DNA of 49,855 nucleotides. It comes from Capsulimonadales bacterium (GTDB taxonomy: Bacteria; Armatimonadota; Armatimonadia; Armatimonadales; Armatimonadaceae). Below are positions 1,896 to 34,310 of this stretch, piece after piece. Location: NCBI GenBank assembly GCA_033762295.1, contig JANRLW010000040.1, positions 1 to 49,855 on the forward strand, in the 5' to 3' direction. The notes under the pieces were generated by a model. The model made no database searches. It saw only the letters and a list, made by a program, of their open reading frames with translations, and had not been told where the DNA came from. How positions within the stretch are numbered: the stretch's first letter is position 1; every line of letters begins with the position of its first letter. A program made the translations under genes and the position numbers.

Positions 1896-3044
1896 TTACC
1901 GTTTCGCCGGTTCCAGGCGGAACGATTGCGTCATGAACCCGTACCACTGTCCGCCGTGTTTCGCCCAGTCCCCCGTGAACAGCAGGGCGCCGCCCAACCC
2001 GTCCGCGTCGATCCACGGGGTCGGGATATGGGGCAGATAGGCCGCGTGGTTCTTGCCGCCCCAGGGCGCTTCATCGTGGAGTAGCTGCCATGGTCCCCAC
2101 GGCGCCGGGCCTTCGTACAACTGGAACTCCGTCGCGACATCCCAGGTTTTTTTGGCCTCTTCGGCGGTGGCGCGGACCCGATGAGGAACCATGTCGCTGA
2201 AAACCGCCAGCCAGAACGCTTTCCGTGCGGGATTATAGCTCATGGTGCTGTGGCCGCAGTGGCCGGGGTCCTTCAGGATCGGTTCCGCCAGTCGCTCCTC
2301 GGAGACCCACCTGGCCTTCCCGCCGTAAAACTCCCACGCCGTTTTTTCGTGCAGGCGTCCGGGCTGGACCCGCGCCAGATAGATCGCGTCCCCGCTCTCC
2401 CAGTTGGAATCGTTGGAGACGGCATACAGATGCTTTTCGAAGCCGCGCGGCGCTCCCTGGCCGCCGGGGCCGAAGGGAAGGAATTGGAGCGCCGTGAACC
2501 TCGGACCGAGGAGATACGGGTCGCCGTCGCGAAAGAGCCGCCCCCAGGTTTTCCCGCCATCGAGGCTTTCCAGCCAGCCGACGAGGCCGCCGTGCGCGGA
2601 ATAGACATCGAGGTTATCGGGAGGGAGTCCGGGGACGCGCCAGGTGTAGTCGTAGACCGAGATCCATAATCGGTCCTCCCAGGCGACGACCCCGCCGACG
2701 TACCGACTGTAACCGCGCTTCCGCACCTCGGTCGTGTAGTGCTCCCCCGGAACGACACCGTCCTTCAGGCCGAGATTATCCAGGACCGCGATCTCCTCGA
2801 CCCGATGCCGGGGCGGCGTTCCCGTGACTTTCAGGACGTGGCCGAAACACCAGGGACCGTCGAAATTCCGGCCATCCTCATCGACGACGATTATCGAGCC
2901 ATCCCTGCGCCAGGCCCACCAGTGCATGTCCGAACCGGTGCCGGGATACCGCGACGGCTCGCTCGTCCATCGCAGGCGGAGAGCCGGGCGAATCGGGGGG
3001 CAGGGGAGCGTTCGACGTCGGGGCGGTTCGTTCTCCGGTTCCAT
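1896..3044 (-). CDS. DUF4185-like beta-propeller protein
   Basis: Motifs IYLARV, WEFY, MSYNP, EGPAPWGPW, YLPHIP, LFTGD; RBS GAAAGGA upstream of the ATG. Confidence 0.65.
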   Translation of the reverse strand: MEPENEPPRRRTLPCPPIRPALRLRWTSEPSRYPGTGSDMHWWAWRRDGSIIVVDEDGRNFDGPWCFGHVLKVTGTPPRHRVEEIAVLDNLGLKDGVVPGEHYTTEVRKRGYSRYVGGVVAWEDRLWISVYDYTWRVPGLPPDNLDVYSAHGGLVGWLESLDGGKTWGRLFRDGDPYLLGPRFTALQFLPFGPGGQGAPRGFEKHLYAVSNDSNWESGDAIYLARVQPGRLHEKTAWEFYGGKARWVSEERLAEPILKDPGHCGHSTMSYNPARKAFWLAVFSDMVPHRVRATAEEAKKTWDVATEFQLYEGPAPWGPWQLLHDEAPWGGKNHAAYLPHIPTPWIDADGLGGALLFTGDWAKHGGQWYGFMTQSFRLEPAKR

Positions 3045-22967: not shown

Positions 22968-23249
22968 ATGGGCGATAACCGGAATGGAATGTTCATCGGC
23001 GTCGGCGCGATCGTGGTCGCGATCCTCGCCGCCGTCATCTCGTTTAACGTCTTCCTGCCGAAGTCGTCGCCGCCCGTCACGGTGCGGAACCCGAACTCGG
23101 CGATGCTGAAGGAACTGGCGATGAAGTGTCAGGGCGACGCGAGCAGGCTGTCGATGGAGGAGCAGCAGAAGGTGGCGCAGGCGGTCGGCGGTCCGCAGTA
23201 TATCGGTCTGGCGATCAAGGGCGAGTACGCTCGCTGGGCCAAGAAATAG
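22968..23249 (+). CDS. Small membrane-anchored protein
   Basis: RBS GAGGA; N-terminal TM helix; followed by a terminator hairpin. Confidence 0.8.
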   Translation: MGDNRNGMFIGVGAIVVAILAAVISFNVFLPKSSPPVTVRNPNSAMLKELAMKCQGDASRLSMEEQQKVAQAVGGPQYIGLAIKGEYARWAKK

Positions 23250-23254
23250 GCGAC

Positions 23255-23290
23255 CGGTTCTCCCCTTCGGCGTTCCGAAGGGGAGAACCG
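23255..23290. terminator. Hairpin between convergent genes
   Basis: CGGTTCTCCCCTTCGG-CGTT-CCGAAGGGGAGAACCG, a perfect 16-bp stem. Confidence 0.8.
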
Positions 23291-23296
23291 ATGCGA

Positions 23297-24562
23297 CTAT
23301 CGGACGGCCTTTTCGGGAACGGGGAGACGGTACCGCTCCTCGTAGGCTTTGTCGAACGCGCTGAGGCTCGGGGCGATGCTTGCCTCGGCGAACAGATGGT
23401 CCTTGACCGCTTCGGGGGTCTTCAGACCGTTGCCGGTAATCGCGATAACGACGACATCGTCCCGGTCGAACCGGCCCTGTTCGGCCAGTTTCTTCGTCAC
23501 GGAGACGGTCACCCCGCCCGCCGTTTCGGTCCAGATGCCCTCGGTCTCGGCCAGGAGGCGGATACCCGCCACGACCTCCTCCTCGGTGCAGTCCTCGCCG
23601 CCGCCGCCGGTCTTGCGGCAGATATCCGCCGCGTAGTAACCGTCGGCCGGATTGCCGATCGCGATCGATTTGGCGATGGTGTTCGGCCGCTGCGGACGCA
23701 GCACTTCGGCCCCGGTTTTGACCATGGTGACGATTGGGTTACAGCCCGCCGCCTGCGCCGAGTAGACTTTCGTCTTGACCGGTTCGTCCAGCAGACCGAG
23801 TTTTTCCAGTTCGTAGAACGCTTTCGGGATCTTGGTAATCAGCGAGCCGCCCGCGCAGGGGACGATCAGGTGATCCGGCGTCTTCCAGCCAAGCTGCTCG
23901 GCGATCTCGAACCCGTAGGATTTGGAACCGTCGCCGTAGAACGGGCGCAGGTTGATATTGGCGAACGCCCAGCCGTACTTATCGCCGACTTCGGCGCACA
24001 GGCGGTTCACATCGTCGTAGCAGCCGTCGATCTTGATGACGGTCGCGCCGTAGATGAGATTCCCGAGCACCTTGTTCGCTTCGAGGTCGGACGGAATAAA
24101 GACGAAGCACTCGAACGCGCCTTCGGCGGCGTGGGCGGCCACGGAGTTCGCCAGGTTGCCGGTGGAGGCGCAGGCGACGGTGGTGTACCCGAACTCACGC
24201 GCCTTGGACAGGGCGACGGCGACGACACGATCCTTGAAGGAGAGCGTCGGATGGTTGACCGCATCGTTCTTAATGTAGAGATTTCGGAGGCCGAGCCGCT
24301 TGCCCAGGCGTTCGGCCCGGATCAACGGCGTCCATCCCACCTGTTTACCGACCGTCGGTTCGCCGTCGATCGGGAGAAGATCGGCATAACGCCACATGGA
24401 GAACGGCCCGCGTTCGATCTTTTCGCGGGAGACGGACTGTCGGATGGTATCCCAGTCGTAGGCGACTTCGAGAGGTCCGAAGCAGAGTTCGCAGACGTGA
24501 TTCGGAAGTTTTTCGTACTCGGCGCCGCACTCGCGACACCGCATTCCCAGAACATGACCCAT
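23297..24562 (-). CDS. Threonine synthase family PLP enzyme (possibly O-phosphohomoserine sulfhydrylase)
   Basis: N-terminal CRECG..CELC ribbon, HPTLSFKDR, ASTGN, IAIGNP, ITGNGLKT. Symbol withheld because of the Met T-box. Confidence 0.9.
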   Translation of the reverse strand: MGHVLGMRCRECGAEYEKLPNHVCELCFGPLEVAYDWDTIRQSVSREKIERGPFSMWRYADLLPIDGEPTVGKQVGWTPLIRAERLGKRLGLRNLYIKNDAVNHPTLSFKDRVVAVALSKAREFGYTTVACASTGNLANSVAAHAAEGAFECFVFIPSDLEANKVLGNLIYGATVIKIDGCYDDVNRLCAEVGDKYGWAFANINLRPFYGDGSKSYGFEIAEQLGWKTPDHLIVPCAGGSLITKIPKAFYELEKLGLLDEPVKTKVYSAQAAGCNPIVTMVKTGAEVLRPQRPNTIAKSIAIGNPADGYYAADICRKTGGGGEDCTEEEVVAGIRLLAETEGIWTETAGGVTVSVTKKLAEQGRFDRDDVVVIAITGNGLKTPEAVKDHLFAEASIAPSLSAFDKAYEERYRLPVPEKAVR

Positions 24563-24669
24563 GATTTCGCTTACCCCTTAAACGGTATCGCAGCGGGTCA
24601 ACGAACGGTCGTCCGAGGAAGAACGGCCGGTGCCCGCCTCGCCGATAACGGTGTCGATCCGCCGTGAAC

Positions 24670-24990
24670 GGAGCGACCGGTGCAAGGACGAGCGATCTGA
24701 GAAGCTCGTGGTACCACCTTGCTTCGCGCGGCAGATGCCGTCGCCTTTTAGGCTGCCGGAGCGGGAAGCGTGTTAAACCATCCCCGACCGCCCGGTTTTG
24801 ATAACGGGGCCCCACCACCCCGGCGCCGACTACTGACCGAATCTCGTTTCGGCGTTCCCCGGCGCAGCTCGGAAGTCATTTCCGCCGGGCGATCTCCTGC
24901 CGGTTTCCACCCCGAACGACCTGAAACAGGCCATTCTCCCGGCTCTCTGGTCGGAGTCGCTGCGGCGTACTACTCTTCGTCGTCGCTTTT
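24670..24990 (-). ncRNA. T-box riboswitch, specifier codon AUG (Met)
   Basis: Minus strand: GAAG-AGTAGTA-CGCC, AGAGAGCC, GGTGGAA, GGCG-GAA-ATG-A-CTTC (codon at 24879-24877), AGTA and CCGTTA, T-box AAGGTGGTACCACG (24720-24707), antiterminator 3' arm CGTCCTT. Confidence 0.92.
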
Positions 24991-24998
24991 GCTGTGCC

Positions 24999-25027
24999 AT
25001 TCTATACCCGAATGCCGGGCATGTCAA
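24999..25027 (-). promoter_or_regulatory. sigma70 promoter of the T-box leader
   Basis: TTGACA (25027-22)-N17-TAGAAT (25004-24999). Confidence 0.8.
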
Positions 25028-25030
25028 ATG

Positions 25031-25942
25031 TTACGGAGCGTCCGGAGGCGGCATCAGTTCCCTCGCGCCCTGTTCGAGCAGGCGATCGTAGATGCGTTGC
25101 GGCAGGGTCGTATCCGGCAGGGTCACGGTTCCGGCGGCGTAAACCAGACGGGAACCGTTGGGGGCGGCGACCAGACCGGCCATGACCCCGCGATCCCCGG
25201 CAAAGAACGCGTGCCCGGCCACCGGCGCGGTGCAGCCTCCGCCGAGCAGGGCGAGGAATTGCCGCTCTGCCGTCACCGCCAGACGTGTCGGCTCATGGTC
25301 GCAGATTTCCCGCACCTGCTCTATCAGGTCGGTGTCCCCGGCGCGACACTGAACGGCAACACAGCCCTGGCCGACCTGTGGCAGCAGAATCTCCTCGGAG
25401 ATCCGCTCGGAGATGACCGATTCCCGGCCCAGTCGGTCGAGTCCGGCGCAGGCGAGAACCAGGGCGTCCGCCGATCCTTCGTCCAGTTTGCGCAGGCGCG
25501 TGTCCACATTGCCGCGTATCGGGATGGGACGCAGGTCCGGCCGACGATGCAGCAACTGGGCGATACGCCGGGGCGCGGACGTGGCGACGGTCGCGTTCCG
25601 CGGAAGATCGTTGATCGAACGGTAGCGGGAGACCAGGGCATCCCGGGCATCGGCGCGTTCGCAGAACGCCGCCAGCATTAGCCCCGGAACATCGACCGAC
25701 GGCAGGTCCTTGGCGGAGTGAACCGCCAGATCGATGCTCCCGGCCAGCAGTTCCGACTCGATCTCGCGCACGAAGACGCCTTTACCCGCGACCGCTGCCA
25801 GCGGGACATCCGTTCGAGCATCGCCGCTGGTTTGAATGAAGACGACCTCCACCGTATGACCGGCGGAACGGAGTTTGCCGGCGACGAACCCCGCCTGCCA
25901 CCGGGCGAGCGCCGATCCGCGTGTTCCCAGACGCAGTATCAC
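25031..25942 (-). CDS. hemC: Hydroxymethylbilane synthase (porphobilinogen deaminase)
   Basis: LGTRGSALARWQ, GKGVFVREIE, AVHSAKDLP, RGNVDTRL, LGGGCTAP; GTG start with RBS AAAGGA. Confidence 0.97.
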   Translation of the reverse strand: MILRLGTRGSALARWQAGFVAGKLRSAGHTVEVVFIQTSGDARTDVPLAAVAGKGVFVREIESELLAGSIDLAVHSAKDLPSVDVPGLMLAAFCERADARDALVSRYRSINDLPRNATVATSAPRRIAQLLHRRPDLRPIPIRGNVDTRLRKLDEGSADALVLACAGLDRLGRESVISERISEEILLPQVGQGCVAVQCRAGDTDLIEQVREICDHEPTRLAVTAERQFLALLGGGCTAPVAGHAFFAGDRGVMAGLVAAPNGSRLVYAAGTVTLPDTTLPQRIYDRLLEQGARELMPPPDAP

Positions 25943-34238: not shown

Positions 34239-34310
34239 GCCGGTGTAGCTCAGTGGTAGAGCGGCTGTTTTGTAAACAGCGGGTCGCGGGTTCGAGTCCT
34301 GTCGCCGGCT
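34239..34310 (+). tRNA. tRNA-Thr(TGT)
   Basis: Acceptor stem GCCGGTG/CGCCGGC, D-arm GCTCAGTGGTAGAGC, anticodon arm GCTGT-TTTGTAA-ACAGC, GGTTCGAGTCC; CCA not encoded. Confidence 0.97.

Follow-up and report, generated by a model that had tools for sequence, protein, structure and literature searches.

The ThrC-like gene and its leader

We analyzed a stretch of 49,855 nucleotides (nt) of DNA from a Capsulimonadales bacterium of the phylum Armatimonadota (assembly GCA_033762295.1, contig JANRLW010000040.1; hereafter the window), and within it a single gene for a threonine synthase (ThrC)-like, pyridoxal phosphate (PLP)-dependent enzyme of 421 amino acids, P0001, which is encoded at 23297..24562 on the minus strand and is preceded by a T-box leader. 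The specifier loop of the leader carries a methionine codon and, based on this leader and on the comparative context of the open reading frame (ORF), we propose that the gene probably encodes a MetM-type homocysteine synthase and not the housekeeping threonine synthase. The genome assembly of 5.16 Mb consists of 132 contigs and is 94.5% complete. Contigs, genomes, loci and families other than the window are referred to by our own C, G, L and f labels.

The leader was identified on the minus strand at 24681..24992 as a covariance-model match to RF00230 (model positions 1-219, 65.3 bits, E value 8.3e-14) in a permissive cmscan search of 24400-25200. At the RF00230 gathering score of 93 bits, no T-box was reported in the window, and the sole Rfam match at gathering score was a tRNA-Thr(UGU) gene with discriminator U73 at 34239-34310 on the plus strand. 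Of the three T-box matches in the entire genome, that of the window leader ranked first (E value 1.2e-13). The only others lie on contigs C11 and C127 (L006:1501-1730 and L007:1501-1755); one precedes valS and the other ilvB, the ilvB T-box scoring 35.9 bits with an uncertain specifier call.

The sequence elements that define a T-box are all intact in the window leader: GAA-AUG-A, AGAGA and AGUA are present, as are the UGGU bulge and the two antiterminator helices. The S-turn is present as CAGAGAG, and both CAGAGAG and GAA-AUG-A are invariant across 14 aligned Armatimonadota leaders (the window and 13 relatives), the base that follows the AUG being A or G. The cmscan alignment and a constrained fold agree that the T-box sequence AAGGUGGUACCACG forms the antiterminator with its two flanking helices, GCAAGG/CCUUGC and ACGAGC/GCUCGU, on either side of the bulge (24682..24722, minus strand). 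The bulge itself, UGGU at 24713..24716 on the minus strand, is complementary to a tRNA 3' end reading ACCA, with A at position 73.

The leader ends approximately 120 nt upstream of the start of the ThrC-like ORF. Directly 5' of the leader, just past the stop of hemC, lies a sigma-70-like promoter, TTGACA-17-TAGAAT (24999..25027, minus strand), with 11 of 12 matches to the consensus; it was the only such site within 23150-25150, where shuffled sequences average 0.4, and is a consensus match only. The hemC gene (Pfam) is the upstream neighbor on the same strand, and since this adjacency was seen only in the window when the loci of relatives were checked, we took it as coincidence. Downstream are a GC-rich hairpin between convergent gene ends (23258..23291, no strand assigned; read from the sequence and not called by a consensus terminator scan), a convergent ORF of 93 amino acids without a Pfam match, and a TPR protein. 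The hairpin and the convergent gene thus make the unit monocistronic, and neither hom nor thrB is found in its neighborhood.

The specifier codon and the identity of the tRNA

On its 3' side, the specifier loop is aligned by cmscan as G-A-A-(gap)-A-U-G-A, with the GCCCGGCG and CUUC helix arms at either end. GAA lies at 24882-24880, AUG at 24879-24877 and the following A at 24876 of the minus strand. A sequence-only reading of this DNA had called the codon as methionine, a call with which the covariance alignment agrees, and the same AUG is obtained by applying the TBDB register, which places the specifier 2-4 nt from the 3' end of the loop (PMC7778990). The valS T-box of the same genome reads GUC by this rule, and we therefore consider the rule calibrated. 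The ATG is invariant in 14 of 14 leaders and the alternative frames are not conserved, as illustrated by UGA in the window leader and UGG in the others.

ARAGORN predicted three tRNAs with the anticodon CAU in the genome, an initiator, a tRNA-Ile2-like species and, on contig C84, an elongator tRNA-Met-like species; this typing is based on resemblance to Escherichia coli and Bacillus subtilis sequences. Both the tRNA-Ile2-like and the elongator-type tRNA carry A73, while all four tRNA-Thr genes carry U73. The AUG codon together with the match of UGGU to A73 therefore indicates tRNA-Met, and not tRNA-Thr, as the regulating tRNA, in keeping with the earlier expectation that the bulge would pair with an A discriminator. 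Sequence evidence thus supports a methionine-specific T-box.

We also tried the covariation of bulge and discriminator as a test of tRNA identity across the relatives. Of the 14 leaders, five have UGGA and one UGGG (L106-L109, L112 and L114), and the remainder match A73. When our own tRNA-Met was used as a query in five of these six genomes, it recovered three orthologues, only a tRNA-Phe in another genome, and no match in the fifth. All three orthologues, from family-f8 genomes, have A73 despite the UGGA or UGGG bulges; the discriminator rule therefore fails across the clade and the test was discarded. The same three tRNA-Met genes (L140-L142) also carry a G1-U72 pair, and the discriminator contact in these genomes would be A:A or G:A.

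The expression platform

The consensus terminator scan called no terminator anywhere in the window leader. A stem followed by at least five U residues was present in the alignment in 9 of the 13 leaders of relatives, and was absent from the window leader and its two closest relatives. The minimum free energy (MFE) of the leader was -64.5 kcal/mol, compared to -60.3 kcal/mol with the antiterminator forced. In the MFE folds, a competitor helix is predicted whose 3' arm (24632..24642, minus strand) would pair with 24682-24693, the antiterminator's 3' strand, with no U-run after it, and a hairpin, UUCGUU.ACCC...GGGU.AGCGAA (24566..24605, minus strand), would bury the Shine-Dalgarno sequence AAGGGG located 5 nt before the AUG. 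Read-out in this genome could act at transcription or at translation.

It could be argued that the window T-box is decaying and no longer regulates, the gene being expressed constitutively from its strong promoter. The three leaders of family f1 are the lowest scoring of the set (65, 46 and 43 bits) and lack the stem and U-run seen in 9 of the 11 others, the window leader folds no better than shuffled sequences (z scores of -0.84 and -0.67), and the operon has been broken up in the family to which the window belongs (see below). However, every defining T-box sequence element is retained, a helix competing with the antiterminator and a hairpin sequestering the Shine-Dalgarno sequence are both predicted, and T-boxes that act on translation and have no terminator occur in Actinobacteria (PMC7778990). 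We consider decay of the leader unlikely.

P0001 and the canonical threonine synthase

P0001 contains a PALP domain (221 bits, Pfam) and passes the NCBIfam thrC equivalog TIGR00260 with 281.2 bits against a cut-off of 167.1. The ORF would therefore be annotated as threonine synthase, which is also the name of every named P0001 homologue in a database search; such misannotation had been foreseen in the sequence-only reading, and TIGR00260 evidently does not separate the MetM-like clade. The best solved relatives of P0001 are likewise threonine synthases, with up to 167 bits, and models of cysteate synthase match weakly. The SFKDR and STGN motifs are kept. Lys110 of SFKDR (codon at 24233..24235, minus strand) is invariant in 33 of 33 alignment rows and aligns with SFKDR of the organism's own ThrC; from the general knowledge of fold-type II PLP enzymes it is presumably the lysine that forms the Schiff base.

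The N terminus of P0001 carries a zinc ribbon, CxxC...CxxC, formed by cysteines 9, 12, 24 and 27 (24482..24538, minus strand, from the alignments). All four cysteines are invariant in an alignment of 10 rows; in an alignment of 33 rows C24 is invariant, and C9 and C12 are conserved in at least 90%. In the cyanobacterial homologues L019 (Crocosphaera) and L023 (Microcystis) the first CxxC has been lost, with LVSKEGG in place of LKCRECG, and a carrier gene is still found downstream.

A search for a second thrC, for which the earlier reading had called, found one with a score of 300.5 bits directly after hom (homoserine dehydrogenase) on contig C43. This ThrC is 37% identical to P0001 and has no zinc ribbon, and its stretch IRGNFDE reads IDGCYDD in P0001. 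In a FastTree phylogeny of 140 rows, P0001 and all 109 homologues derived from the loci described below form a clade of 110 rows with a support of 98, and the organism's own ThrC falls beyond a branch with a support of 100; FastTree is a quick method and several of the representatives are on long branches. These results support the assignment of P0001 to a ThrC-like clade that is distinct from canonical ThrC.

Orthologous loci in other phyla

Using the alignment of 10 rows, we retrieved 80 loci whose homologues are 52-64% identical and which come from Cyanobacteria, Nitrospinota, Planctomycetota, Verrucomicrobiota, Acidobacteriota, Chloroflexota, Actinomycetota and others. A gene for a ThiS-like sulfur carrier protein lies downstream on the same strand in 67 of the 80, within 350 nt in 59 of these. 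Among the 13 loci without a carrier, downstream sequence is missing for two and limited to about 850 nt for a third. A separate NIL-domain gene was found in 18 of the 80 loci, and a ThiS-NIL fusion in two.

Sixteen of the loci, picked for diversity with cyanobacteria excluded, were scanned for riboswitches. Ten of the 16 have an S-adenosylmethionine (SAM)-I riboswitch upstream on the strand of the gene, and one more has a SAM-II riboswitch. Eight of the SAM-I elements are within about 260 nt of the start, those of L067 and L045 are at 0.8-1.2 kb, and that of L073 is at 414 nt with a T-box in between. In L073, from a metagenome-assembled genome of Chloroflexota, the region 2545-3026 contains a T-box (83.6 bits; specifier AUG, bulge UGGU) behind a SAM-I riboswitch (75.8 bits), and this tandem precedes a metM-like gene and a carrier gene; one operon thus appears to have two tandem sensors of methionine status. 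The T-box of the window is an independent regulatory indication that the family serves methionine, in line with the SAM riboswitches found upstream of orthologues from other phyla.

Distribution in the Armatimonadota

A homologous gene is present in 47 of 121 Armatimonadota genomes at E values up to 1e-80. The cultured relative Chthonomonas calidirosea has a homologue that is 72% identical to P0001. In the loci of the 29 best relatives, a T-box was found upstream in 13, with scores of 43-97 bits, and none was found in the other 16. Three of the 13 leaders are above the gathering score (L115, 97.1 bits; L108, 94.5 bits; L111, 93.2 bits), and the other ten score 43-90 bits. Genes for the carrier and for a NIL protein follow downstream in 18 of the 29 loci, including the T-box-controlled L106-L109, L111, L112 and L114, and in three further T-box genomes they are located about 1.4-3.6 kb downstream.

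MetY, a homocysteine synthase, scored above its cut-off in 58 of the 121 genomes. Cross-tabulation gave MetY in 8 of the 47 genomes that encode the ThrC-like protein, compared to 50 of the 74 that do not, although the genomes are related and therefore not independent, so that the table overstates the evidence. Within the family of the window, the gene occurs in G040 and G079, where MetY gave no match at E values up to 1e-40, and MetY is found in G012, G026 and G091, from which the gene is absent. Weaker matches to the PF01053 family exist in many of the 121 genomes. The distribution of the gene is thus suggestive of complementarity to MetY, and suggests that MetM may serve as the principal, or even the sole, homocysteine synthase of many Armatimonadota in which it occurs.

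The comparative data allow a different explanation to be weighed, namely that P0001 is a true threonine synthase, the second in the genome, whose control by methionine would balance flux at the O-phosphohomoserine branch point. This would account for the TIGR00260 match (281 bits against 167), the threonine synthases among the solved relatives (up to 167 bits) and the retention of SFKDR and STGN. Furthermore, PMC12172450 describes a Microcystis ThrC, 51.6% identical to MetM, that makes threonine in vitro; our Microcystis homologue (L023), which may or may not be the published protein, is 58% identical to P0001. The regulatory logic of such an enzyme would be backwards, however, because induction of a ThrC at uncharged tRNA-Met would drain the precursor of methionine. 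A canonical hom-thrC pair is already present in the genome, with a ThrC that is separate from P0001 in the tree, the orthologues are linked to carrier genes (67/80) and to SAM riboswitches (11/16), and their distribution is complementary to that of MetY. A second threonine synthase is, in our judgment, highly improbable. The same linkages, together with the hom-thrC pair and the MetY pattern, point to a role of the gene in methionine synthesis, as the sequence-only reading had proposed.

Remaining components of the proposed pathway in this genome

ThrB and MetH are encoded elsewhere in the genome. No sulfur-carrier gene follows the ThrC-like gene, as had been noted before, but the expectation of a missing carrier has to be corrected, since an unlinked one exists on contig C79. 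Two ThiS-family genes were found in the genome, one for an 84-amino-acid MoaD and the other, on C79, for a 197-amino-acid ThiS-NIL fusion in which ThiS occupies residues 14-100, ending in AIAGG, and NIL occupies residues 108-173. Four carriers encoded beside orthologues (two from Armatimonadota, one from Microcystis and one from an actinobacterium) matched only the C79 gene when searched by tblastn against this genome, with 43-60% identity, and two NIL proteins of Armatimonadota operons matched its C-terminal half. The same-family relatives G040 and G079 also encode a fused ThiS-NIL, 65-68% identical to the C79 carrier and again on a separate contig; the solitary gene and the fusion therefore represent a family-level rearrangement of a T-box-metM-metO-NIL operon.

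On contig C106 (L137:3859-5609), a JAMM protease gene (84.9 bits) overlaps by 4 nt the start of a gene for a 402-amino-acid protein with ThiF and rhodanese domains. The best models for this protein were MoeB and MoeZ, and its 535 bits to MoeZ are below the cut-off of that model. The overlap suggests that processing and activation of the carrier could be translationally coupled.

The sequence-only reading had raised the possibility that metA, metX, metY and metB are missing. This did not hold, since MetX (450.7 bits, cut-off 331) and MetY (642.9 bits, cut-off 495.1) are both present, and a profile search of this 94.5%-complete genome failed to find only MetA/HTS. With MetX and MetY present, a MetM-type route is therefore redundant in this genome. 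At E values up to 0.001, no methionine-responsive RNA element was found near metY, metX, thrB, the two ThiS-family genes or hom-thrC, and no T-box or riboswitch was found near the carrier or the JAMM/MoeZ genes.

Structure prediction was applied to P0001 together with the ThiS domain of the C79 carrier. The predicted complex scored 0.65, with 0.00 for the best control; 116 of 157 solved complexes reached this score, as did 2 of 215 mismatched pairs, a calibration that is only rough here because self-made alignments were used. At least 87% of the contacts were shared between runs and the pLDDT of the partner was at least 86. The predicted interface involves P0001 residues 11 and 21-30, in the zinc ribbon, and carrier residues 84-91. 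The model supports binding of P0001 to the C79 carrier domain.

A MetM-like enzyme might instead use free sulfide without any protein carrier, in which case ThiS-NIL, JAMM and MoeZ would serve some other purpose such as molybdopterin synthesis. The monocistronic arrangement of the gene, the location of the carrier on another contig and the lack of methionine-responsive RNA elements at the carrier, JAMM and MoeZ genes would all fit such an enzyme, and MoeZ-type enzymes also serve MoaD, for which a gene is present. These points are countered by ThiS-NIL being the only match in the genome to the carriers adjacent to orthologues, by the retention of the fused carrier in both same-family genomes that have the gene (G040 and G079), by the score of the modeled complex relative to its controls, and by the position of the conserved zinc ribbon within the predicted carrier interface. 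Use of free sulfide is very unlikely on this evidence.

Proposed function and comparison with known systems

MetM, MetO, Mec and MoeZ were reportedly described in Streptomyces albulus in 2024 (Hasebe et al., Appl Environ Microbiol 90:e01247-24). We propose the following chemistry, modeled on that of the Streptomyces MetM/MetO and the CysM/CysO systems. O-phosphohomoserine made by ThrB would lose its gamma-phosphate by elimination on the PLP enzyme P0001, and the C-terminal thiocarboxylate of the ThiS-like carrier would add at the gamma carbon to give homocysteine, which MetH would methylate to methionine. The ThiS-NIL protein would be cut after Gly-Gly, presumably by the JAMM protease, and the freed carrier would be adenylated and sulfurated by the adjacent MoeZ-like E1-rhodanese protein. 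Under methionine shortage, the anticodon of uncharged tRNA-Met would pair with the AUG and its free ACCA end with UGGU, stabilizing the antiterminator and turning the gene on.

Some other gamma-replacement or elimination on O-phosphohomoserine or a related substrate, yielding for example cystathionine or a thio-amino acid of a cofactor, could be considered because ThrC-fold enzymes have diversified, as the weak cysteate synthase matches illustrate, because a conserved NIL protein of unassigned role accompanies the system, and because the homocysteine chemistry itself is proposed from analogy. On the other hand, the only characterized pair of a ThrC homologue and a ThiS-type carrier is reported to make homocysteine, and complementarity with MetY in particular suits a homocysteine synthase. 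A product other than homocysteine would be most surprising.

Several observations nevertheless weigh against a MetM-type function under T-box control. The link of P0001 to the characterized S. albulus MetM is an indirect one, through Microcystis homologues, and a Microcystis homologue is reported to make threonine in vitro. MetX and MetY are present in the genome, the carrier gene is unlinked to that of P0001, and the carrier and JAMM/MoeZ genes have neither a T-box nor a riboswitch nearby. The leader scores below the gathering score, has no stem-plus-U-run platform and folds no better than shuffled sequences; A73 coexists with mismatching bulges in the three tRNA-Met orthologues that were recovered; and the MetY contrast is inflated by relatedness among the genomes.

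The proposed system adds a further member to a known enzyme family and pathway, under a riboswitch of a known type. As listed in GapMind 2026 (PMC13759103), the steps of the pathway are MetM, MetO, Mec and MoeZ, and MetM is often misannotated as threonine synthase. According to PMC12172450, metM of S. albulus has a SAM riboswitch upstream, and homologues occur in cyanobacteria. A homologue search seeded with the actinobacterial orthologue L076 returned no Streptomyces among the 120 matches listed. P0001 resembles S. albulus MetM (UniProt A0A059WBP2) in being a ThrC homologue of the kind usually annotated as threonine synthase, accompanied by a canonical ThrC in a genome that also encodes a carrier of the ThiS/MoaD type, a JAMM hydrolase and an E1 of the MoeZ type, and in its predicted methionine-responsive control. 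The local twists are the tRNA-Met T-box in place of the SAM riboswitch, the host phylum Armatimonadota, and an unlinked, NIL-fused putative pro-carrier. Automated reconstructions would count two ThrC enzymes here and overlook the homocysteine route.

Methionine T-boxes are known from Firmicutes, including one that precedes the met biosynthesis operon of Staphylococcus aureus. The window leader shares with these the Stem I, a specifier loop reading GAA-AUG-purine, AGAGA, AGUA, a T-box with a UGGN bulge and the antiterminator, and 9 of the 13 Armatimonadota relatives also have the U-run terminator. It differs from them in its score below the gathering threshold, its non-canonical expression platform and its target gene, the putative metM. 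In PMC3766115, T-boxes are attributed to Firmicutes, Actinobacteria, Chloroflexi, Deinococcus-Thermus and Geobacter, and Armatimonadota are not among the groups named there. None of the papers searched paired T-boxes with Armatimonadetes or Armatimonadota; TBDB may already include such leaders. An ordinary thrC T-box is listed in a review on Clostridioides difficile.

CysM, CysO and Mec constitute a route to cysteine in Mycobacterium tuberculosis. That route and the one proposed here have in common a PLP enzyme, sulfur delivered as a carrier thiocarboxylate, a phosphorylated hydroxy-amino acid as substrate, a JAMM protease and a MoeZ-type activator. P0001, however, belongs to the ThrC clade and has a zinc ribbon, unlike enzymes of the CysK/CysM type, and its proposed substrate is O-phosphohomoserine instead of O-phosphoserine. 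With canonical threonine synthases (2zsj, 6cgq, 1uim and 2d1f) it shares the fold, SFKDR, the STGN loop and probably O-phosphohomoserine as substrate, and it differs from them by the additional N-terminal zinc ribbon, the absence of linkage to hom or thrB, and methionine control. These predictions can be tested at the bench through the homologue of the cultured C. calidirosea.

In the MetN importer, NIL acts as the regulatory module that binds methionine. It is tempting to speculate that NIL is a third functional part of MetM/MetO systems, which in this lineage caps the carrier so that the Gly-Gly end is blocked until JAMM removes NIL, and which could render maturation or loading of the carrier sensitive to methionine, giving product feedback at the protein level beyond the tRNA-Met T-box. 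That this proposal holds, and that in addition the T-boxes are native to the Armatimonadota clade, is a combination we regard as rather unlikely.

Genes accompanying the carrier

On the minus strand of C79, a Cys-rich ORF of 79 amino acids (CC..C, C...C; L101:1793-2032) shares 8 nt with the start of the ThiS-NIL gene; Pfam gave no match for this ORF, and G040 has a homologue in the corresponding position (L148). A second ThiS-like domain is present elsewhere in open frames of 457-497 amino acids, L152, L153 and L154 (from G103, G112 and G037, respectively), and may represent a carrier joined to a larger enzyme. In four genomes of the same order, a chlorite-dismutase/HemQ-like gene is located between metM and metO behind the T-box (for example L111:2908-3738). 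A HemQ-like gene also directly precedes ThiS-NIL in the genome of the window (L101:2036-3256 on C79) and in G040 (L148:487-1194), and may be an ordinary heme gene that is hitch-hiking with the system.

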